From NCBI GenBank assembly GCA_964371255.1, contig CAYJKV010000006.1:9806-73805 (forward strand): a stretch of 64,000 nt of DNA, written 5' to 3'. The notes below the pieces were generated by a model. It ran no database searches, was not told the origin of the DNA, and saw nothing but the letters and a program-made list of their open reading frames with translations. Each line of letters begins with the position of its first letter. The stretch's first letter is position 1. Shown here one piece after another: positions 18,515-49,364 of the stretch. The stretch is from an uncultured Candidatus Saccharibacteria bacterium. GTDB lineage: Bacteria; Patescibacteriota; Andersenbacteria; UBA10190. The translations under genes and the position numbers were made by a program.

Positions 18515-19117
18515 TCATTCCGCAAAGCGAACCTGAATTTGACGAATAAGCTCGTTATAAAGTCTGACTAGAAAACTGTTCCACTCCATTAGATTTCTAT
18601 CTTTCTCTACGGCTTCAATAATATTAAAGCCAAAGTGAGTGTGTCGTTGGCGCGCCAAGTCTTTATCAATCATGAGCTCATAGAGGTTTGGTGATATCTT
18701 ATCAATTGAATGAGCAAATTTTGCTTCACGAGATTTGTTGCGTTCAAATTCTTCATATATCGCATGATAATCTGCGGCAAGCTGGGAAAGTGCGGCTTCT
18801 CTTTCCGTCACAACCTCATTCTCAGTTTTTTGACGCTTCACAGTTAGAATATCGCCAGTAACTGTTTCGCCAATGTCATGAATGGCAAGCATAAGCAAAA
18901 CCTTGCCAATATCGAGCTCTTTTTCGCCTAGGTATGAGTACAAAAATGTAGCAACAATCGGTAGCGCGCCGATGTGGTCAGCAAGCGACTCGCGCATTAG
19001 ATTGCTGCCAGGTTCTGCTACGCCTTGGCCAACACGTGAAGGGAGATACGGTCCTCGATATACACCAGAATATCGTGCTAGTAAATCAAGCAATTTTGCC
19101 AGGCATTCTTTTTCCAT
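18515..19117 (-). CDS. HD-domain phosphohydrolase (YfbR-like 5'-deoxynucleotidase family)
   Basis: HD motif LMLAIHDIGETVTGD; ~200 aa from the internal Met; the longer ORF (to 19183) would overlap the tRNA 3' exon. Confidence 0.7.
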   Translation of the reverse strand: MEKECLAKLLDLLARYSGVYRGPYLPSRVGQGVAEPGSNLMRESLADHIGALPIVATFLYSYLGEKELDIGKVLLMLAIHDIGETVTGDILTVKRQKTENEVVTEREAALSQLAADYHAIYEEFERNKSREAKFAHSIDKISPNLYELMIDKDLARQRHTHFGFNIIEAVEKDRNLMEWNSFLVRLYNELIRQIQVRFAE

Positions 19118-19156
19118 CTGAAACCAATGTAACGCGTACGCTAAAAAAATAAAGAG

Positions 19157-19535
19157 CTCGCGGGGTCGGACTCGAACCGACAACCTAGTGGTTACATGTA
19201 ACCCATTATTTTCATAATGGCATGGACTATCTCATCACCCTTCCTTAATCAAGAAGGGGCTGGGCGCTTATGTAGGATTATTGTTGGAACTCACCTACTA
19301 GTCTCTACACCGGCCTTCGCCAAAACTTCAAACATGAAGTTTCCCAGCAAAGGATTGGCTCGGGATTGCCCTTCGACTCGTCGTCTGACGACTCGCTCAG
19401 GGTTTCCCCGAATTCACCCAGTTATTCGATCCGCCTCTCGACGGAAAGCTGCTATTTAACCCCCTCAATCCCCCTTATCAGGGAGAAGAAAGACTAATGT
19501 CACAGCCACTTGCTCTGCCATTGAGCTACCCGCGA
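19157..19535 (-). tRNA. tRNA-Asn(GUU) interrupted by an intron in the anticodon loop (exon 1 19502-19535, exon 2 19157-19194)
   Basis: Exons join into a canonical 72-nt tRNA: 7-bp acceptor stem (U1-A72), D arm gctc-aatggca-gagc, anticodon stem agtgg/ccact with loop CU-GUU-AA, variable loop aggtt, T arm gtcgg-ttcgagt-ccgac, discriminator G. Confidence 0.75.
19195..19501 (-). ncRNA. Group I-like self-splicing intron (~307 nt), no ORF
   Basis: 5' exon ends in U, intron ends in G; R-like gtgtagagactagta and S-like gagatagtcc can form P7 (gacta/tagtc); Q-like aatcccgagc; internal hairpin gaaacttcatgtttgaagttt. Confidence 0.65.
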
Positions 19536-19756: not shown

Positions 19757-21196
19757 TTAAAACTGGAAATAGATGAACTCTCGCCCCATCATCGGCGCAT
19801 TCTCCGACAAAAACACGTACAGTGTCACAAACAGGACCGCCGCCCCATATACCATTTGATTGATCCGCGGCAGCTTCAGCCAGAATAATAAGTCCCTCCG
19901 CCGCCACTGCATTATCTGCGTTAGCAGCAAAATCGCTATTACCAGCACAAAATATAAAATCGTATCGCCAAAACCAAATTTTATTTCCCAATTAGAGAAC
20001 ATGGCCTGCAGCATCTCACCCACTTGCCCAATCGATTTTGCCCGAAAAAACAGCCAGCCAATGGCAGCCAGGTGAAAAAATATAATTATCTTCCCGACCT
20101 GCCATACCCAATACCGTTCCAGTGTCTCCCCTAAGGCCCGTGGCCAAAACCGCTCCATCGCCCGGTGCCCAATCAAGAGCAATCCCTGGTAACCTCCCCA
20201 TATCACGAACGTCCAAGCCGCCCCGTGCCATAATCCCCCAAGCAGCATGGTTATAGCCAGATTCCTTTGTGTCTTCCGCCACCCCTGCCGATTGCCGCCG
20301 AGCGGTATATACAAATAGTCCTTCAGCCAAGTCGATAAACTGATGTGCCACCGCTGCCAAAACTCGCGCGCGTTGCGAGAGAAATATGGCAAATTAAAAT
20401 TCAACATCAGCTCAAACCCCATCAGCTTCGCCAGTCCCCGCGCAATATCCGTATACCCGGAAAAATCGCAGTAGATCTGCCAGGCAAATGCGTACAAGGC
20501 CAGCCACACCTGCGGCCCGTTATATGGCCCGCCCGCAAACACTGGCTCCACTAATGTCGCCAGACTATCCGCCACAATGACCTTCTTAAATAATCCCCAG
20601 CCAATCAAATAAAGCCCCTCAGAAACTTTCCGGTCGCTCAGCCGTCGCGGCTTCATCACTTGCGGCAATAATGATGTGGCCCGCTCGATCGGTCCCGCCA
20701 CCAGCTGCGGAAAGAAAGCGACGAACAAAGCAAAATCAGTCAATTTTCTGGCCGGCTTAAGCTGCCGGCGATAAACGTCAATCGTATAGCTCATCGTCTG
20801 GAAGGTATAAAAAGAAATACCCACGGGCAATATGACGTGCAACGTGAACCCATCCACCCGCCAGCCAAAGACGCTCATTAGCTCCGCCAAACTATCATTG
20901 AAAAAATTGAAATATTTAAAGAAGCCCAGGATCAGTAGACTGGAGCTCATGCTCACCCACAATAAAATCTTTCTTCGCCGCGGCGTTTTAGCTTGATCAA
21001 TTTTCCAGCCAATCACATAATCGATGCCCGTCGACAGCCATATCAGGGACAAGAATCGCCAGTCCCATGACCCGTAAAAAACATAACTGGCCCCCAGCAA
21101 TAAATAATTTTGCCAGCGGTGCGACAAACACAGGTACAGCAAATACACGACGCTAAAGAACAAGAAGAACTCGCTCGTGTTAAAAACTAGCGCCAT
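19757..21196 (-). CDS. MBOAT-family membrane O-acyltransferase (AlgI/DltB-like)
   Basis: Multi-TM protein with conserved region WQRWHISLSTWLKDYLYIPLGGNR...LWHGAAW (MBOAT His). Confidence 0.85.
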   Translation of the reverse strand: MALVFNTSEFFLFFSVVYLLYLCLSHRWQNYLLLGASYVFYGSWDWRFLSLIWLSTGIDYVIGWKIDQAKTPRRRKILLWVSMSSSLLILGFFKYFNFFNDSLAELMSVFGWRVDGFTLHVILPVGISFYTFQTMSYTIDVYRRQLKPARKLTDFALFVAFFPQLVAGPIERATSLLPQVMKPRRLSDRKVSEGLYLIGWGLFKKVIVADSLATLVEPVFAGGPYNGPQVWLALYAFAWQIYCDFSGYTDIARGLAKLMGFELMLNFNLPYFSRNAREFWQRWHISLSTWLKDYLYIPLGGNRQGWRKTQRNLAITMLLGGLWHGAAWTFVIWGGYQGLLLIGHRAMERFWPRALGETLERYWVWQVGKIIIFFHLAAIGWLFFRAKSIGQVGEMLQAMFSNWEIKFGFGDTILYFVLVIAILLLTQIMQWRRRDLLFWLKLPRINQMVYGAAVLFVTLYVFLSENAPMMGREFIYFQF

Positions 21197-39152: not shown

Positions 39153-39444
39153 ATAGAATAACTAATTTTCGAATTACATTAGCGTATACGGATAAATGAG
39201 ATTGTCAATAATCACAATTTTTATCATTTACACTCCGCTATTAGTAACGACTAGATAAGAGACCATACAGAGAGAGATTCTCCTGCAGTAAATCTCCTGA
39301 CGGAAATTTCATCCGGGCCTGGCCTCACAGTGCTCGCCTTGCTCTGATGGGCAAATTCGCCCAATACTCCCGCCCTTCTCATTCCAACGAGAGTGACTTA
39401 ACGTCACTCACTCTCTCCTCCTCACAAAACTTCTTATTTCTGGA

Positions 39445-39586
39445 GGGCCGCTAGAGTTAGGTACCCGTACAGTTCAGTGTGTTGAAGCTTTTACTGAAGG
39501 TCAATTCGAAACACAAACTGAGGCATGTGGGTTGGGGTATTATAGGAAGCAAACGGAACAAATGGGACAGTATAAAAAGAGTTTGT
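39445..39586 (+). repeat. ~140-bp direct repeat copy A (about 88% identical to 44043-44173)
   Basis: 54-nt identical core agttaggtacccgtacagttcagtgtgttgaagcttttactgaaggtcaattcg plus a conserved 3' part aacggaacaaatgggacagtataaaaagag. Confidence 0.9.
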
Positions 39587-39729
39587 TCTGTGTTTCCCTT
39601 ACTTTCTTTCACATTCTATTGCCATGTATAACCTTCACTTAAGCTGCATAAGAACGATGACTTACTTACAGTATGATGATACTGTTAAGCGTGGAGGGCA
39701 CTGGGTATTAATAATTAATTCTCAACTAC

Positions 39730-42185: not shown

Positions 42186-42602
42186 ATGATCCTCTGCGGT
42201 GGCTGCGGGGATGGCATCACGGCCGAGGAAAAATTTAAAAAGCGCGGGGATGGCTCAATCAAAAAATATGTGTACTACCACTGCAGTCGATTCGACTACA
42301 CCTGCAAACAGCCGTATGTGCGTGAAGATGAACTACTATCTCAAATACTTCAAATAATCGATAAGGTAGACTTTAATAAACTGGGAATTCAAAAGAAACT
42401 GGAAATCGAAACACAACGACTACAAAAATTCAGTCTTGGAATATTGCAACAAAATCAAAAAATTGTTGTGCCGAAAGTGGACACGAGAACTTATGCCAAA
42501 TACTTACTGCAGGAAGGGACGCGAGAGGAAAAGCGAGAGTTACTCTCTTGCCCGAAAAGCAAACTGAAATTTATAGATGGCAAATTACTGATTAGCGATT
42601 AG
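42186..42602 (+). pseudogene. C-terminal fragment of a large serine recombinase (zinc beta-ribbon + coiled coil); catalytic resolvase domain absent
   Basis: CGGCG...YYHC zinc-ribbon motif followed by a coiled coil, typical of the large serine recombinase C-terminus; no upstream catalytic domain in frame. Confidence 0.5.
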
Positions 42603-43322
42603 CTCCTTTTTAACAATCCACTTGGATTCATCGGTCGTTAAAACAAGTACATCGATATTCCCTCCAACGTTCTTTGGACGCGCCTGAAATCTCATAGTGT
42701 CAATTGTCGTACGTATTGCATATATTGAAAAATCTATCGCATCTTGAAGCGCCATCGCATCCCAAATAATCGGAGCCACCCCTCGCAGAACTTTCTGTTG
42801 GCCATTCGCATTAACAATAACGGGATTCATTAAGTTTGTAAGAATGTCAGCTTGGCCTGACCATGTGCATCCAAATGCCGAAGACCCGTCTGGCTTTAAG
42901 TTTCTCCGCTCATGCTTATCTTGTTTTATATGAGTATATAAAACATAAGGCACACTTACTTTACCCTCTTTTTTGTATCCACACACATGAAAGCCCGTAT
43001 CGACTTCACCAAACTCTTTTTTGATAAAGTTTTTTAACTTCCTAGCGACACTTTCTACATCGTCCTGTTCTTTAAGTAATTCCTCGCTAAAACGTCTTAT
43101 GTGACTAGCCATTGGTACACCTCCTAGTAAATCTTGGCCGAAGCTAGAAATACCAATACCTTGTTTCTCAAGGAAGAAAGTCTTCGTAACGTTATCAGAA
43201 TTAGTAGTCTCCACATTGAAGGACTTACCCTCAGGATTAGTACCGCCAATTGTAACTGACTGCCGACTATCGGAGGCCATTACAATGCCTTCAGGAACAT
43301 AAGTGGCTATAACAAGTGACAT
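42585..43322 (-). CDS. Ntn-hydrolase of the proteasome beta-subunit/HslV-like (peptidase T1) type, Ser as putative N-terminal nucleophile
   Basis: MSLVIATYVPEGIVMASDSRQS aligns with the T1-x15-D17 pattern of proteasome beta subunits (TTIvg.kf.dGVVlAaDsRat); Lys near position 33. Confidence 0.45.
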   Translation of the reverse strand: MSLVIATYVPEGIVMASDSRQSVTIGGTNPEGKSFNVETTNSDNVTKTFFLEKQGIGISSFGQDLLGGVPMASHIRRFSEELLKEQDDVESVARKLKNFIKKEFGEVDTGFHVCGYKKEGKVSVPYVLYTHIKQDKHERRNLKPDGSSAFGCTWSGQADILTNLMNPVIVNANGQQKVLRGVAPIIWDAMALQDAIDFSIYAIRTTIDTMRFQARPKNVGGNIDVLVLTTDESKWIVKKELIANQ

Positions 43323-43325
43323 AGT

Positions 43326-43877
43326 TTATGAATTTTTAAACATTAAATAGATCCCCATGAAAGCTAGGACTGTTTCGGGGTAACTCCATGATTGAAGAGT
43401 GGAAACAGCGCCAAGGAATAGAAAAGCACAAGCGATAAAAAACGATTTCCGCGCCGTCTCAGGGCTAAGCGTTGAAAGAGCAACACCTGTGTCGGCAAAG
43501 GCATTCTTAAATTGGACTTTGAGATTACTCATTTCTTGCTTATGTCCCACTGACTGGTCGGTACTTGTTGGCTGGTTGCTGGGCGCGGCAACCTGGGCGG
43601 AAGAAGAGGATCCCGAACTTGAGTACTCAAAACCTATCCAATGGATGTAGCGCTTAGCCTCTGCTGTTAATTCGAAAGGGCTCTCATTACGGTTCTTCAG
43701 TTTTTGGTATTCCAATAGACCCTTTGCCCGTAAACTAAGAAGGCGATCATAAGTCGATACGTGAGATTTAAGGCCAAGCTGATCCGTGAGTTCCCTCAGC
43801 GTAGGAAACCGATCCAATGTCTGCTCCATAGCTCCTATGACCTGTAAGGTCTCCAGCTGTTTTCCAGTTAGGTCCAT
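43326..43877 (-). CDS. LexA-type winged-HTH DNA-binding domain fused to a C-terminal membrane region
   Basis: N-terminus LTGKQLETLQVIGAMEQTLDRFPTLRELTDQLGLKSHVSTYDRLLSLRAKGLL resembles LexA_DNA_bind; Ser-rich linker; C-terminal 2 TM helices; no LexA peptidase domain. Confidence 0.45.
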   Translation of the reverse strand: MDLTGKQLETLQVIGAMEQTLDRFPTLRELTDQLGLKSHVSTYDRLLSLRAKGLLEYQKLKNRNESPFELTAEAKRYIHWIGFEYSSSGSSSSAQVAAPSNQPTSTDQSVGHKQEMSNLKVQFKNAFADTGVALSTLSPETARKSFFIACAFLFLGAVSTLQSWSYPETVLAFMGIYLMFKNS

Positions 43878-44042
43878 ACCTAAATGATACTCTTCCCTGA
43901 TGGGGACGCAAGGGTATTAAATTAAATCCCTGTGCTTGGACAAAATTGAACCGACAAGAGAATAGAATTCGAACCTTTCAAAACCTAAGTAGGTGGGTCA
44001 TTTAGACCCAAAACTATCGGGCGGGCCACGTGAGTTAGGTAC

Positions 44043-44173
44043 CCGTACAGTTCAGTGTGTTGAAGCTTTTACTGAAGGTCAATTCGGAAGTGAATTTCAG
44101 GCATGTGGGTTGGGTTATTTTGGGTGTAAACGGAACAAATGGGACAGTATAAAAAGAGTCTGTTCTGTGTTTC
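44043..44173 (+). repeat. ~140-bp direct repeat copy B
   Basis: Matches 39445-39586. Confidence 0.9.
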
Positions 44174-44219
44174 ATTTGCATATATGTTTATTTTGTGGTG
44201 ATGTATGTTGTTCCTGCAT

Positions 44220-44615
44220 CTACAGGCTGGCTAACAGTTTCTTCACTCGGGTCTCAATAATATCTCGGATGGTGCGTATTTCTACTAAATCCTTCCCTTC
44301 TGTATTATCAACATCCCAGTCCTCAATCTTTGCTTGAATGATCGGAGAAAAAGCAAGCTTCACCAAACAGCCAAAGGAGATAAGGCGATCGTATTGATCA
44401 GCAGTAGCTGGATCAAATAACTTGGGCTTGTTTGTGGAAACATCGATGCCTTTTTCTTGCATAGCTGCCACGACAATAGGATTCACTGCTGGAGCAGGCA
44501 TCGTCCCGGCACTTTCTGCACCGAAATCTGTTCCAACAGCGAAGGTATTAAAGAAAGCCTCGGCCATTTGAGAGCGGCCGGCGTTTTCAGCACAAACAAA
44601 GATAATCTTTCTCAT
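44220..44615 (-). CDS. arsC: Arsenate reductase, LMW-PTPase (thioredoxin-coupled) type
   Basis: P-loop CAENAGRSQMAE (CX5R) at the N-terminus; 131 aa. Confidence 0.8.
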   Translation of the reverse strand: MRKIIFVCAENAGRSQMAEAFFNTFAVGTDFGAESAGTMPAPAVNPIVVAAMQEKGIDVSTNKPKLFDPATADQYDRLISFGCLVKLAFSPIIQAKIEDWDVDNTEGKDLVEIRTIRDIIETRVKKLLASL

Positions 44616-44661
44616 TGCCTAAAGTATATCGGTAATATGGAAAATTGTGTCGCATAAATCT

Positions 44662-45723
44662 TTATGTGAGCGTGTCCAAGGCTTCATGTGTTTGTTGAGT
44701 TTCAAAGAAAGGTCTTAATCGCAAAGCAACGCTTACTAATAATATCAGCACCGGCACTTCAATTAATGGCCCAATCACAGCCGCAAAGGCCACCCCGGAA
44801 TTAATACCAAACACAGCAACTGCCACGGCAATGCCAAGCTCAAAGTTATTGCCCGCCGCCGTGAACGCTAGTGCCGTACTCTTGGGATAATCCGCGCCTA
44901 CTCTCTTTGATATGAAGAAAGCGGAGAAAAACATGACGATAAAGTAAATTATTAGCGGAATCGCTATGCGCACAACATCAAAGGGTATCGTCACAATAAC
45001 ACTGCCTTTCAGTGAAAACATGACAACGATTGTGAAGAGCAAGGCGATAAGTGTTAAGGGGCTAATCGCCGGCAGAAAGTATTGTTTGTACCAAACTTCT
45101 CCCTTGGACTTTAAGAGGGCATAGCGAGTGGTAATTCCCGCTATAAAAGGAATGCCTAAATAGATAAAGACACTTTTCGCAATTTCAATTATACCCACGT
45201 CCACAATACTGCCCTGCAGACCAAACAGTGCCGGCAAAACAGTCACAAAAATATAAGCATACACGCTGTAAAATAAAACTTGGAACAAGCTGTTAAACGC
45301 AACCAGACCGGCCACATAGTCATTATCCCCGTGCGCTAAATCTGTCCAGACCAGCACCATGGCGATACATCGGGCAATTCCTATCATTATCAGACCCACC
45401 ATATACTCCGGATAATCTCTAAGGAAAAATATGGCCAGGAAAAACATAAGCAACGGTCCGATTATCCAGTTCTGCAAAAGAGAAAGCCCAAGAATCTTTT
45501 TATCCTTGAATACCTTGCCTAGTTCTTCGTAACGAACTTTTGCCAAAGGCGGATACATCATCACGATTAATCCAATGGCTAGCGGGATACTAGTCGTGCC
45601 AACACTATAACGATTAATGACACTCCCAACCTGCGGAAAATAATGGCTTGAAGCTATGCCTGCAGCCATAGCCAAAAAAATCCAAAGCGTTAAGTATCGG
45701 TCTAAGATGGAAAGTTTTTTCAC
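44662..45723 (-). CDS. acr3: Arsenite efflux transporter, ACR3 family
   Basis: 10 TM; N-terminus [19 protein letters not shown] typical of Acr3. Confidence 0.85.
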
Positions 45724-45731
45724 GACAACTG

Positions 45732-46469
45732 TTATTTAAGCGCCGAGAACGTAATGCTAGACGCATATTCCGGCAAGAACGCAGGAATTTCTTTGTGGAT
45801 TTCAACGCTCTGAAAACCGGCCTTTCCTAAGAGGTTAAGATACTCCTGTTTCAAAATGGCACCGCTAACGCATCCGGTTAACAATTCCTTATCATTTTTT
45901 AATTCATCCGGCAAAGGTTTCTTCAAAACAACATCAGAAATCATGAGCCTGCCACCTGCTTTCAACGCCCTATACGCTTCGCGAAAAACCTTTTCTTTGT
46001 CAGGAGCCAAATTAATCACGCAGTTCGAAATAATTACATCTACTGATTCGTTATCAACCGGCAACGCCTCAATGTCTCCCTTCCTAAACTCGACATTTTG
46101 ATAATCATTCTTCACTGCATTCGCCCTGGCTTGCACAAGCATCTCGTCAGTCATGTCAACACCAATCACCCTGCCGGCATCGCCGACTTTGTCAGCCGCC
46201 AGAAAGACGTCAATGCCGGCTCCCGAACCTAAATCCAAAACGACTTCTCCGGCTTTCAATGATGAGATAGCGACCGGATTACCGCAGCCAAGCCCTAGGT
46301 TTGAGCCCTCTGGTACTTGCCGCATCTCATCTTGAGAATATCCCATTTCTCGCGACTGTAGCTGCACAGTCCGATTAGCGTTGCACCCGCAGCTGCCGCA
46401 ACCAGAAGCTCTGGCAATGTTGGCATACGATTCCTCCACGATTTTCTTTACTTCTTTTGGATTATTCAT
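45732..46469 (-). CDS. arsM: Arsenite S-adenosylmethionine methyltransferase
   Basis: SAM motif [13 protein letters not shown]; conserved Cys pairs (GCGSCGC, GLGCGNP, SNCVINL) of ArsM. Confidence 0.8.
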
Positions 46470-46780
46470 ATTTTTATCTTAAGAATTAGGTTGGTAATTT
46501 CTTTACCTTTTGGTGTTAAAGAGTAATAAGACCATTTGCCGTCCCTCCTGTCCGTCACTAACCCGCCGTCCTTAAGGTCTTTCAGGTGATGCGAAATGAG
46601 GCTTTGGGAAAATTTAAGATGCTCCATTAACTGGCAGACACAGTGTTCGCCATTTTTAAGCATAAGGACCAACTGCAGGCGGCTGTTTTCAGACACAAGC
46701 TTTAGCAGTGCCGCAACTTTTTTCACATCTCTATATTCGGTTATATCAACACGGCAGCAATCATATGAACACATGCTCAT
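46466..46780 (-). CDS. arsR: ArsR/SmtB family metalloregulator
   Basis: HTH with metal-site CVC ([11 protein letters not shown]...SHHLKDL). Confidence 0.85.
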
Positions 46781-46842
46781 ATATTAAACCAGCACTAAGT
46801 TATTTACAATTCAGAGCCAGCTAAATAGGATATCGCTAAAAA

Positions 46843-47802
46843 CTATAGAACCGCATTAAACACAAACCCGATAATCATTATCCCCGTAGCTACCAAACCA
46901 AAAAAGGTTAGTAGCAGGGGTAATTTAATAGCCTTTTTCAAGATAAGCGCCTCCGGCAAAGACAGCCCAACCGTTGCCATCATAAAGGCCAAGGCCGTGC
47001 CAAGCGGAACGCCTTTATCAACCAGCGACTGCATAATCGGAAAAACACTGTGAGCGCTGGCATACAACGGCACACCCGCGATGACTGCTAATGGAACTGC
47101 CAGTAGGTTATCGCCCCCAACGTACTTTTCAAAAAATCCTTCAGGAACATATCCATGTATTGCTGCGCCGATACCGATCCCCGCCAATACGTACGGCACA
47201 ACTTTTTTCGTAATGCTCCATGCTTCTTTGGATACGTCTTTGAGTATGGGTAAGGATAACGGCGACCAGCCCACGTTTATAGCCGCCGGCCGTATTTTCG
47301 TCTCCATAATATAGTTTTCAACATAACGCTCCATCTTGAGACGGCTCATAATATAACCGCCCAAGGAGCCAAGCACCATGCCTGCTCCGACGTACATGGC
47401 CGTTATCTTCCAGCCGAATAACCCAATGAAAAGCGCCACCGCCACTTCGTTAATAAGCGGTGACGTAATGAGAAAAGCGAACGTGACGCCGAGCGGTATG
47501 CCCGCGCCCACAAAGCCAATAAACAAAGGAATAGACGAGCAGGAACAAAACGGTGTGACGGCTCCAAAAATTGAGGCTAGCACATACTCCAGCCCGTACC
47601 ATTTCCGCTTAGTCAAAAAATCCCGTAGCTTCTCTACTGGCAGGTAATAACGAAGCAGACTCATAAAGAACGTAATAACCAGCAGCAGCAGCACAATTTT
47701 TATGCTGTCATACACGAAAAAGTTAACGCTTTGCGCCAAGCCGGATCCCGTTTCTAAATTAAGCGCGGTGTAAGTAAGCCAATCCGCAAACTGTTGAATC
47801 AT
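46843..47802 (-). CDS. arsP: Organoarsenical efflux permease ArsP-like (DUF318 permease)
   Basis: TPFCSCSSIP motif (the ArsP TPFcSCS signature); 8 TM. Confidence 0.7.
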   Translation of the reverse strand: MIQQFADWLTYTALNLETGSGLAQSVNFFVYDSIKIVLLLLVITFFMSLLRYYLPVEKLRDFLTKRKWYGLEYVLASIFGAVTPFCSCSSIPLFIGFVGAGIPLGVTFAFLITSPLINEVAVALFIGLFGWKITAMYVGAGMVLGSLGGYIMSRLKMERYVENYIMETKIRPAAINVGWSPLSLPILKDVSKEAWSITKKVVPYVLAGIGIGAAIHGYVPEGFFEKYVGGDNLLAVPLAVIAGVPLYASAHSVFPIMQSLVDKGVPLGTALAFMMATVGLSLPEALILKKAIKLPLLLTFFGLVATGIMIIGFVFNAVL

Positions 47803-47909
47803 AAATTACAGGTTAATGAGAAATAAAATAAAGCAATATGTGCATTGATAAAACTATTTGACCTTATACGGTTTGAACTTTTTGTTAATAGGCGTTTTGA
47901 TAAATATTT

Positions 47910-48308
47910 TTAATAAGCCAAATCGTCTTTTCTTTGCTCCAGCTCTGTTTTGACGTTTTTAAATACGCCGGTTTCTTTCACGATTCTTTGCGCTTTGTCT
48001 CTCGGTGTATCGTCGTCTTCGACAAAACTGATCGCTCCGACCGGGCAGAGATTGGAGCAGGTGATGCAGGCTACCATGCAATTATTCGGATTGACCACTT
48101 TAGACTTTTTATTTTTGTAATCAAACTTATACACGCCTCGGCCGCAACTGGTGGCGCACATGCCGCAACCAATGCATTTTGATTCGTCTATCACGGGATG
48201 CCAGTCTATCTTATCGCGGTCAATGCCGTGAAATTTAGTAAACTTCGGGTCTTTGTTTGATGTTTCCATAGTGTTTTGATTTAAATAATAATTATTATTT
48301 GACTTCAT
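47910..48308 (-). CDS. 2x[4Fe-4S] ferredoxin-domain protein
   Basis: CIGCGMCATSC and CMVACITCSNLCP cluster motifs. Confidence 0.7.
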   Translation of the reverse strand: MKSNNNYYLNQNTMETSNKDPKFTKFHGIDRDKIDWHPVIDESKCIGCGMCATSCGRGVYKFDYKNKKSKVVNPNNCMVACITCSNLCPVGAISFVEDDDTPRDKAQRIVKETGVFKNVKTELEQRKDDLAY

Positions 48309-48828
48309 ATACCTCGAACTTTTTGTTCCGCAGATACCATTCCATTAAATACCCGACGACGATAAACAGGGGCAGGGCGACAAGCGTCCTCGCCAAGGTA
48401 AATTTCAGTCCCAAATATCCTATTTCAATTCCCAGCATCGGAATCTTGAGGGTTGAAAACGCCCCGAGATAAATAAAGATATTTTTCACGCTGGCTCCTT
48501 TCTCGTAAAGAATGTAAGCCACGGGAAATGCGCCATAGAGAGGCCCAGCTTGAAGCGTGGCTAAAACTATTACGGCCAGCATGCCCATGATGCCGGAGTC
48601 CTTGCCAATATATTTTTCTATCTTTTCTTTCGGAAACCAGACATCAAATAAGCCGACAATGATAAACAGAAACGGAATAAAAATGATCATTTCAATAAAC
48701 GATTCGGTAAAACTCCGGTAGATTGTTTTGCCGGGATCAAATCCAAACCAAAAGGAAACGATGCCAAAAACGGCAAAACTCGCGAGCCAAATGTACGGTT
48801 TCATTTTTTGGAATGCTTTCTTGGTCAT
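48295..48828 (-). CDS. Permease half-protein (split two-gene permease, C-terminal module)
   Basis: 5 TM; overlaps its partner by 4 nt (translational coupling). Confidence 0.5.
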   Translation of the reverse strand: MTKKAFQKMKPYIWLASFAVFGIVSFWFGFDPGKTIYRSFTESFIEMIIFIPFLFIIVGLFDVWFPKEKIEKYIGKDSGIMGMLAVIVLATLQAGPLYGAFPVAYILYEKGASVKNIFIYLGAFSTLKIPMLGIEIGYLGLKFTLARTLVALPLFIVVGYLMEWYLRNKKFEVYEVK

Positions 48829-49364
48829 AGAATAATTCCGATTAAAACGCCGATGATAATGGCGGCCGCAAAATTCAAAACATTCCGCAGTATGGCGATC
48901 TTTTTGCCAAAATATTTGGTTTCAAGCGGTAAGGTCACGACTCCGACCATCATCAGCGTTGTCATAAAAACAGCGACTGTGGAATAAGAGGCACCCTGTT
49001 TTACAAGGCTGGCGGCAATCGGATAAGAAATAAATCCGGGGATAAGAGTGATGGAGCCGACAACTGCGGCGATCGCAAATCCGACGACACCCGAACCGGC
49101 TCCCAAGTATTCGGTTATCAGTCGCGGAGGAATAATAAACAGCAATAAGCTGACCAGCATCAGGATATTCAGAAACGGGACGATGATATTTTTAAACATC
49201 CTGAACCCTTTTTTAAAGCCTAGTATTGTCTTATCTTTATCCAACAGGAACGAGACTAAGCTCGTGGAAACTGAGAAGGTGATAAAGATTAAAGCGTTGT
49301 TCATAAAAATATACTTGGGACTAGTTGCAATGCTCGCATTTAAGCTCGATGTTTTTTGATTCAC
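48825..49364 (-). CDS. Permease half-protein (N-terminal module)
   Basis: 5 TM; paired with 48295-48828. Confidence 0.5.
   Translation of the reverse strand: MNQKTSSLNASIATSPKYIFMNNALIFITFSVSTSLVSFLLDKDKTILGFKKGFRMFKNIIVPFLNILMLVSLLLFIIPPRLITEYLGAGSGVVGFAIAAVVGSITLIPGFISYPIAASLVKQGASYSTVAVFMTTLMMVGVVTLPLETKYFGKKIAILRNVLNFAAAIIIGVLIGIIL

Follow-up and report, generated by a model that had tools for sequence, protein, structure and literature searches.

A proteasome-like Ntn hydrolase encoded directly downstream of a LexA-type winged-helix protein in an uncultured Andersenbacteria genome: a conserved gene pair and a possible regulatory switch

The window analysed here is a stretch of 64,000 nucleotides of contig CAYJKV010000006.1 (assembly GCA_964371255.1), from an uncultured Candidatus Saccharibacteria bacterium that GTDB places in the Andersenbacteria. 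It contains two small adjacent genes: one for a 245-aa protein that is almost certainly a proteasome-like N-terminal nucleophile (Ntn) hydrolase and, upstream of it, one for a 183-aa protein, here called wHTH-TM, in which a LexA-type winged helix-turn-helix (wHTH) domain is followed by a linker and a hydrophobic C-terminal part (Table 1). Both open reading frames (ORFs) had been proposed in a first-pass annotation of the sequence and are present at the positions given there; the genes are adjacent on the same strand, as it stated, but the gap between them is 3 nt and not 4 bp. A C-terminal gene fragment of a large serine recombinase converges on the hydrolase gene and overlaps its 3' end by 18 nt. 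Two direct repeats (86% and 74% identity) bracket the gene pair and the recombinase fragment, in accordance with the earlier placement of the pair in a repeat-flanked island.

Table 1. Features of the gene pair and its surroundings in the window, and positions of the family X genes found beside related hydrolases
Feature	Position	Strand	Basis
Hydrolase gene, 245 aa, predicted Ser2 nucleophile	42585..43322	(-)	ORF; protein starts MSLVIATYVPEGIVMASDSRQS
wHTH-TM gene, 183 aa: LexA-type wHTH, linker, C-terminal hydrophobic hairpin	43326..43877	(-)	ORF; Pfam LexA_DNA_bind
Winged-helix DNA-binding domain of wHTH-TM, aa 2-63	43689..43874	(-)	Pfam PF01726
Ser-rich linker of wHTH-TM, aa 83-137, predicted disordered; proposed cleavage region	43467..43631	(-)	Model confidence (pLDDT); cleavage is a proposal
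Hydrophobic helical hairpin of wHTH-TM, aa 139-181, putative membrane anchor	43335..43463	(-)	Hydropathy and low-confidence model
Spacer between the wHTH-TM and hydrolase genes, 3 nt, TAA-act-ATG	43323..43325	(-)	Sequence
Large serine recombinase, C-terminal fragment, 138 aa, zinc ribbon	42186..42602	(+)	Pfam Zn_ribbon_recom E 1.9e-7; PHROG integrase E 3.4e-5
Direct repeat (~190 nt), right copy, upstream of the wHTH-TM gene	44017..44206		Promoter-like site 44175-44146(-) inside
Direct repeat, left copy, native upstream region of the Na+/H+ antiporter gene	39439..39629		Alignment
Family X genes (other loci)	L001:6732-7307, L089:4732-5274, L098:1905-2456, L099:2750-3388, L101:3317-3754, L032:6844-7335		

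The nature of the hydrolase emerges from family profiles alone. Single-sequence searches of Pfam, NCBIfam, PADLOC, PHROGs and the PDB (phmmer) return nothing usable: the protein has no match to Pfam PF00227 (Proteasome), to HslV or to any other NCBIfam model, and the only hint in Pfam is the connectase N-terminal domain PF09894 (E 0.081, residues 1-26, 12.9 bits against a threshold of 26.8). A profile of 101 diverse family members was compared by hhalign with a reference set of four sequences, E. coli HslV and the beta subunits of Thermoplasma, yeast and Mycobacterium, and aligns with proteasome beta/HslV over 177 columns at 94.5% probability and E 7.4e-8. A profile search of PDB sequences gives 49 matches, all to proteasome, connectase or Anbu proteins (best E 2.3e-4; connectase E 0.069; designed Anbu E 1.7). 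In an AlphaFold2 (AF2) model of the hydrolase, with a predicted local distance difference test (pLDDT) of 69.5 and a predicted template modelling score of 0.68, helices H1 and H2 span residues 71-82 and 89-104, and the best 50 Foldseek matches of the model in the PDB are all 20S proteasome entries (probability 1.00, TM 0.47-0.70). The proteasome-beta/HslV-like fold of the first-pass annotation is thus borne out by profile-profile alignment, PDB profile search and Foldseek; structure prediction, which it had named in advance as the test of the fold, gave a proteasome-like fold, the Ntn alpha-beta-beta-alpha sandwich, and not an unrelated one.

In the hhalign register, Ser2 of the hydrolase corresponds to the catalytic Thr1, Asp18 to Glu/Asp17, Lys47 to Lys33, Gly62 to Gly47, and Ser155-Gly156 to Ser129-Gly130; E17, K33 and G47 of the Thermoplasma beta subunit pair with D18, K47 and G62. 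The serine nucleophile and the Asp17 that had been read from the sequence are therefore in register, whereas the claimed Lys33 spacing is not: residue 33 is lysine in 12 of the 101 family members, and the conserved lysine is K47 (96/101), which does not stand at 33 because a 13-residue insertion (residues 28-40) shifts it. A first alignment, of a hidden Markov model (HMM) to PDB sequences, had equated K47 with proteasome Lys40 and was overturned by the profile-profile alignment. Of the other positions, residue 2 is Ser in 82 and Thr in 16 members (Ser or Thr in 98/101), and D18 is kept in 100/101, G62 in 94/101 and G156 in 101/101. Judged by its residues, the active site (Ser2, Asp18, Lys47, Gly62) appears catalytically complete. 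Ser2 would be exposed by removal of Met1, the task of methionine aminopeptidase. A second insertion relative to proteasome beta/HslV, of 22 residues (165-186), lies between helices H3 and H4, a position at which an insertion could block double-ring assembly (Fuchs et al., 2021; PMC8665760). The description of the enzyme as self-compartmentalising, and hence as a ring-forming protease, is not supported in view of this insertion. No HslU/AAA+ gene was found beside the pair. A Ser1 nucleophile has already been documented among proteasome homologs (PMC8665760).

wHTH-TM matches the Pfam family LexA_DNA_bind (PF01726) over residues 2-63 with 33.1 bits (curated threshold 23.7, E 4.8e-8), and Pfam finds no Peptidase_S24 domain in it, which agrees with the earlier description of a LexA-like wHTH protein devoid of the LexA peptidase. 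The NCBIfam lexA model TIGR00498 scores 28.4 bits against a threshold of 110.95 and aligns at model positions 3-64 of 203 only, the wHTH domain. Towards the C-terminus there is a strong hydrophobic segment at residues 145-162 (Kyte-Doolittle ~2.3) and a shorter, weaker one at 166-181 (~1.1-1.25). The AF2 model of wHTH-TM was built from an alignment of three sequences, is of low confidence (pLDDT 48.9) and was used for secondary structure only; it predicts helices at 5-21, 27-34, 40-61, 139-160 and 166-181 and disorder in residues 62-137, where pLDDT is below 50. Of the two-helix membrane anchor that had been claimed, one hydrophobic segment is clear from hydropathy and the other is weaker; with both helical in this model, the anchor as a whole is plausible and unproven. 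The order of elements is common to the homologues described below: wHTH domain, a helix with the motif 'SPFxL...W.G', a variable linker, a KNAF motif and two hydrophobic helices. The linker is poorly conserved among the four homologues except for the KNAF motif, and the C-terminal hydrophobicity is kept in all four despite sequence divergence. R142 and K143 stand before the first hydrophobic helix, suggesting an N-in/C-in topology. Given these two residues ahead of helix 1 and the absence of a signal peptide from the hydrolase, both linker and peptidase would be cytoplasmic.

The wHTH-TM family is small. A search of 5.8 billion proteins returned the protein itself and one homologue (80% identity), and a profile search added two, giving four members in this set; scans of JGI metagenomes and IMG/VR yielded no further homologues. 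All four genes lie directly upstream of a gene for a proteasome-like hydrolase, and the co-occurrence in other genomes that the first-pass annotation had named as a check is thereby found in every detectable family member. In the closest locus, L085, wHTH-TM and the hydrolase are 80% and 95.5% identical to those of the window, the spacer is again 3 nt, and a PALP enzyme gene forms the left flank. The second locus, L090, has identities of 31% and 66%, a spacer of 6 nt and a frameshifted wHTH-TM. The third, L092, has identities of ~35% and 28% with a 3-nt spacer; its genes stand in the order methyltransferase, HNH, wHTH-TM, hydrolase, and its hydrolase, of 349 aa, itself passes the Pfam Proteasome threshold (24.0 bits vs 22.4). 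The flanks differ among the four loci: an ars operon, the PALP enzyme, an MmeI-type restriction-modification (R-M) system, and HNH plus methyltransferase. When the window is compared with L085, the ratio of nonsynonymous to synonymous substitution rates (dN/dS), with synonymous sites near saturation, is 0.018 for the hydrolase and 0.06 for the whole of wHTH-TM with its linker; purifying selection acts on both genes. Because the hydrolase has hundreds of homologues and the gene pair recurs elsewhere, the observation lies far beyond chance. These data indicate that the two proteins are very probably linked in function.

The hydrolase family is large. In the same protein set it has 996 homologues at E<=1e-3, the best 120 of which are 58-74% identical to the window protein, carry no Pfam domain and are all named 'hypothetical protein'; a profile search of a 50%-identity library gives 1,470 representatives, whose alignments almost all begin at residue 1. 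One-genome-per-species GTDB contigs contain 189 loci in 185,579 genomes (~0.1% of species genomes), in Dehalococcoidia and other Chloroflexota, Patescibacteria, Caldisericota, Gammaproteobacteria and Cloacimonadota and, among archaea, in Thermoplasmatales and Methanoregula, with 49-71% identity to the window protein. INPHARED phages have no match, plasmids one weak match and IMG/VR one locus, and a phage or plasmid origin of the hydrolase was dropped on these results. Most family members lie among housekeeping genes or downstream of R-M genes, without a wHTH partner. In Dehalococcoidia the setting is a stable housekeeping block (miaA, PNPOx, dapF, hydrolase, class-I aminotransferase), and in Caldisericota the gene follows that for S-adenosylhomocysteine (AdoHcy) hydrolase. 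At 80 of 80 genome loci of the hydrolase, tblastn and HMM searches found no wHTH-TM partner, only weak matches to the LexA domains of LexA-methyltransferase fusions.

Two further partners recur beside the hydrolase. A gene of the HEPN_Cthe2314 family (PF18730, ~250 aa, E 2.2e-9; e.g. L035:1117-1869) lies immediately downstream of it in nine loci (L003, L018, L024, L030, L034, L035, L038, L039 and L053) from Dehalococcoidia, Gammaproteobacteria, Bdellovibrionales and Cloacimonadota; a 2013 survey of HEPN proteins gave no gene context for this family (PMC3710099). An Rx4H-like motif was noticed by eye in one of these HEPN proteins. The second partner, family X, comprises proteins of 180-212 aa with conserved D41 and T93 in six loci (Table 1). 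Its gene is translationally coupled to that of the hydrolase, with an overlap of 4-8 nt at the hydrolase stop codon in five loci; in L032 it lies ~100 nt downstream. A PIN-like nuclease was considered for family X, for which the sole signal, a weak one, is PIN_10 at E 0.11; the PDB profile search was empty. The hydrolases closest to that of the window (66-74% identity) form a clade whose genes follow same-strand R-M genes at a distance of 26-42 nt. The R-M neighbours of the closest hydrolases (L091, L098, L099, L101, L102, L092, L089 and L014) are type II MvaI/BcnI, HNH or BglII endonucleases and N6/N4 methyltransferases, and L014, L089 and L101 encode the methyltransferase as a fusion with a complete LexA, both wHTH and S24 peptidase. 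Neither a family X gene nor an HEPN gene is present in the window, and PADLOC has no match for any component of these modules. A single large and unusually conserved family of proteasome homologs thus has at least three recurrent, tightly coupled partners: wHTH-TM, the HEPN protein and family X.

The surroundings of the pair suggest mobility. In three of the four loci the gene after the hydrolase is a convergent serine-recombinase fragment, L085 having a homologous recombinase tail and L090 a resolvase fragment at the same position as in the window. Homology between the window and L085 is confined to one 1.48-kb block, which begins 41 nt before the wHTH-TM start and extends 147 nt beyond the hydrolase stop. 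The window locus is found in identical form in at least 22 metagenomic contigs. The neighbouring Na+/H+ antiporter falls in a 90% identity cluster with proteins from Candidatus Andersenbacteria and Parcubacteria GW2011_GWA2_45_14, which places the window in a bacterium of the candidate phyla radiation (CPR). The flanking repeat copies the sequence that natively precedes the antiporter gene and is recognisable also in relatives that lack the island, and this 5' region (TTTTTATACTGT...ACATGCC) is conserved upstream of the orthologue in related Parcubacteria contigs. Since the repeat duplicates the antiporter 5' region, the antiporter and the wHTH-TM operon stand behind similar promoter-like sequences. 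The repeat was also considered as a structured RNA or riboswitch and this was rejected, as no Rfam match was found at E<=1 (folding z-scores -1.08 and +0.43). A tRNA-fragment attachment site was rejected as well: both the window and L085 have T-loop-like GGTTCGA strings upstream, but no tRNA is detected by ARAGORN.

An arsenic cluster (44220-49364(-)), unusual cargo for a CPR genome, directly adjoins the island on its upstream side, with genes for an arsR-like HTH_5 protein, an ArsM-like methyltransferase, an ACR3/SBF permease, a low-molecular-weight-phosphatase-type ArsC, a small ferredoxin and several ArsP_1 permeases, one full-length (319 aa) and two shorter. Elsewhere in the window, a group I intron (19203-19468(-); Rfam RF00028, 71.4 bits, E 4e-16) is found in an intergenic stretch flanked by an HD-domain gene (18515-19183) and, on the other side, an MBOAT gene (19757-21196), with no tRNA or rRNA host gene detected. 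A low-GC stretch (0.34-0.39) carries the gene of an 865-aa protein with PHP and SMC-like ATPase parts (15738-18335(-)), which matches the PADLOC Ppl defence model at E 3.5e-38.

The explanation that best accommodates the observations on the pair is a tentative one, in which a co-inherited operon encodes a regulator that is also the substrate of its peptidase. wHTH-TM and the hydrolase would form a co-transcribed module in a Parcubacteria/Andersenbacteria-like CPR bacterium, and the serine-recombinase element that carried this module would since have decayed. The peptidase would be activated when Met1 is removed and Ser2 freed, with Asp18, Lys47 and Gly62 completing the active site. In wHTH-TM, a disordered cytoplasmic linker of ~55 residues would join the LexA-type wHTH domain to a hairpin held in the membrane. 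The protein may act as a dedicated regulator of the operon, presumably by binding DNA at its own promoter, and as the specific substrate of the peptidase. A cut in the linker would part the DNA-binding domain from the membrane hairpin, which is probably also the dimerising element, and so switch expression. The two proteins would together be a 'LexA in two pieces' that acts in the manner of the ImmR/ImmA or DdrO/IrrE repressor-protease pairs. That the peptidase cleaves the regulator at all is a step about which we have real doubts, though it is conceivable. A more far-reaching version seems unlikely to us: wHTH-TM would be a 'split LexA', its autoprotease half swapped for the membrane hairpin and its switching done in trans by the Ser-Ntn peptidase, and small mobile modules that accompany R-M systems would be built around a protease of the hydrolase family, with wHTH-TM, the RNase-like HEPN protein or family X as its exchangeable partner.

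Several points weigh against this explanation. The membrane anchor is read from hydropathy and from a model of pLDDT 48.9, and its second helix is short. A search upstream of the four wHTH-TM genes found no conserved palindromic operator, and nothing in the sequence points to cleavage, a recognisable cleavage motif being absent. In L090 the wHTH-TM frame (L090:45-670) is split between the wHTH domain and the remainder, while the hydrolase gene is intact; the broken gene may be a pseudogene or an assembly error. The four loci are all metagenomic and three have run accessions in the SRR2238xxxx range, so that their independence is limited. About 90 other loci of the hydrolase family, including relatives 65-74% identical, have no wHTH-TM gene. 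The peptidase therefore does not depend on wHTH-TM; the linkage is strict in one direction, from the wHTH-TM family to the hydrolase. Finally, the membrane-anchored bacterial regulators ToxR and CadC bind DNA without being released.

In the main alternative, which we regard as possible but distinctly doubtful, wHTH-TM is a local membrane-anchored one-component transcription factor of the peptidase operon, answering an envelope or membrane cue and not cut by the peptidase, and the peptidase acts on other cellular substrates, as it has to in the many genomes without the regulator. Regulators often adjoin their targets, and such an arrangement fits a hydrolase that is mostly solo among housekeeping genes (as in Dehalococcoidia and Caldisericota), that has diverged less than its neighbour between the window and L085 (95.5% vs 80% identity) and that survives intact in L090 beside a broken wHTH-TM. 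It fits less well with a family seen solely upstream of one kind of peptidase, down to 28% hydrolase identity, which suggests more than local regulation; with a LexA-type domain that lacks precisely its protease half and stands next to another protease; and with the failure to find an operator. In another alternative, the hydrolase forms the invariant centre of a conflict or defence-type module whose partners can be exchanged and which tends to ride with R-M genes, and wHTH-TM is a sensor or membrane-acting effector which the peptidase activates or restrains. The nine HEPN_Cthe2314 loci, the six loci with coupled family X genes, the position of the closest hydrolases just after R-M genes and the gene order in L092 speak for such a module. 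We nevertheless consider it improbable: PADLOC recognises none of its components, hydrolases of different phyla share 50-75% identity, unusually high conservation for a defence gene, INPHARED phages lack the hydrolase and IMG/VR holds one locus, many members sit in stable housekeeping contexts, and the window has neither family X nor HEPN.

It might also be asked whether the adjacency has any functional meaning, since a repressor-like gene and a hydrolase gene could simply hitchhike on one small mobile segment. The contiguous 1.48-kb block shared with L085, which contains the pair and the recombinase tail, and the decay of the island, of which the recombinase fragment alone remains, are what hitchhiking would leave behind. 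This is very unlikely, however, given that the pair in L092 keeps its 3-nt spacing at ~30% identity of both proteins and between different flanks, that purifying selection on both genes is strong, and that all four family members are linked to a hydrolase which occurs in ~0.1% of species genomes. Lastly, the enzyme might be no degradative or processing hydrolase but a transpeptidase or ligase of the connectase kind, acting on one specific target, which could be wHTH-TM. This reading draws on the Pfam hint to the connectase N-terminal domain and the connectase match in the profile search, and on connectase itself as an example of a monomeric proteasome homologue that is a specific ligase (PMC7980362). 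The Pfam score is well below its threshold, the window protein keeps helices H1 and H2, which are missing in connectase, and a methyltransferase-A-type substrate context is absent; we hold this reading to be highly improbable.

For this large and so far uncharacterised family of proteasome relatives, the pairing with wHTH-TM is a rare clue to function. More than 20 families of proteasome-like proteins have been described for which there was no functional clue and no informative gene context (Fuchs, Alva and Lupas, 2021; PMC8665760). The enzyme itself is of a known kind, an uncharacterised proteasome homolog. By its features it probably lies near the group named PMI, for 'proteasome homolog with multiple insertions', with published representatives such as WP_137109689.1 and HDY66466.1 (PMC8665760). 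It shares with the PMI and group II homologs the proteasome-beta fold, the Thr/Ser1-Asp17-Lys33-Gly47 site, the lack of a propeptide, the H3/H4 insertion, a patchy spread over bacteria and archaea and the lack of a known function, and differs from them in having a dedicated wHTH-TM partner and two further recurrent ones. With HslV, Anbu, BPH and connectase it has the superfamily fold and the catalytic triad in common; unlike HslV it matches no HslV model and has no HslU/AAA+ neighbour. The role of these proteasome relatives is now directly testable in vitro with two small proteins, and if the split-LexA reading with interchangeable partners were true, a group II/PMI-like proteasome homolog would for the first time have a physiological role assigned to it.

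A precedent for a proteasome-like site-specific protease encoded on a mobile element may be seen, by analogy, in Rrp (SP_1145) of S. pneumoniae TIGR4, which cleaves the ribosomal protein bL27 at a specific site (bioRxiv 10.64898/2026.08.10.744006). The likeness is one of description: both are Ntn proteases of this type on mobile elements, and the function of Rrp was likewise previously unknown. The substrate of Rrp is a ribosomal protein, however, and no adjacent regulator has been described for it. The literature searched yielded no account of a proteasome homolog coupled to a LexA-wHTH membrane protein. LexA itself (TIGR00498) has the same beginning as wHTH-TM, an N-terminal wHTH (PF01726) and then a flexible linker; it continues with the S24 Ser-Lys autoprotease and dimerisation domain and its Ala-Gly self-cleavage site, where wHTH-TM has a hydrophobic hairpin, so that any cleavage of wHTH-TM would need the neighbouring Ntn peptidase, in trans.

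Repressors that are cleaved in trans are familiar from ImmR/ImmA of ICEBs1 and from DdrO/IrrE of Deinococcus, in which, in mobile-element or stress-response settings, the gene of an HTH repressor adjoins that of its cognate protease and site-specific cleavage of the repressor brings about derepression. The proteases of these systems are COG2856 zinc metallopeptidases, and the repressors are soluble and of the XRE type. The present pair resembles them in its co-oriented, adjacent genes for a DNA-binding protein and a protease, conserved as a pair in four of four family members. It differs in that the protease is a proteasome-like Ntn hydrolase and the putative repressor is of the LexA type and putatively anchored in the membrane. 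By analogy, then, the pairing is comparable to ImmR/ImmA, to DdrO/IrrE or to a LexA with its protease in trans, but without a COG2856 metallopeptidase or an S24 domain, and cleavage of the regulator would make it a new type of repressor-protease switch. Membrane-tethered transcription factors that are released by proteolysis are also known in eukaryotes: Spt23 and Mga2 of yeast, which the proteasome processes, and SREBP and ATF6. They have a C-terminal membrane anchor, putative in wHTH-TM, on a DNA-binding protein that a protease could free, and for Spt23/Mga2 that protease is the proteasome. These systems depend on ubiquitin or on intramembrane proteases, and a bacterial membrane-bound factor can reach DNA without release. 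If the regulator is indeed cleaved by its neighbour, the gene pair would be a bacterial parallel to the proteasome-dependent release of membrane-tethered transcription factors.

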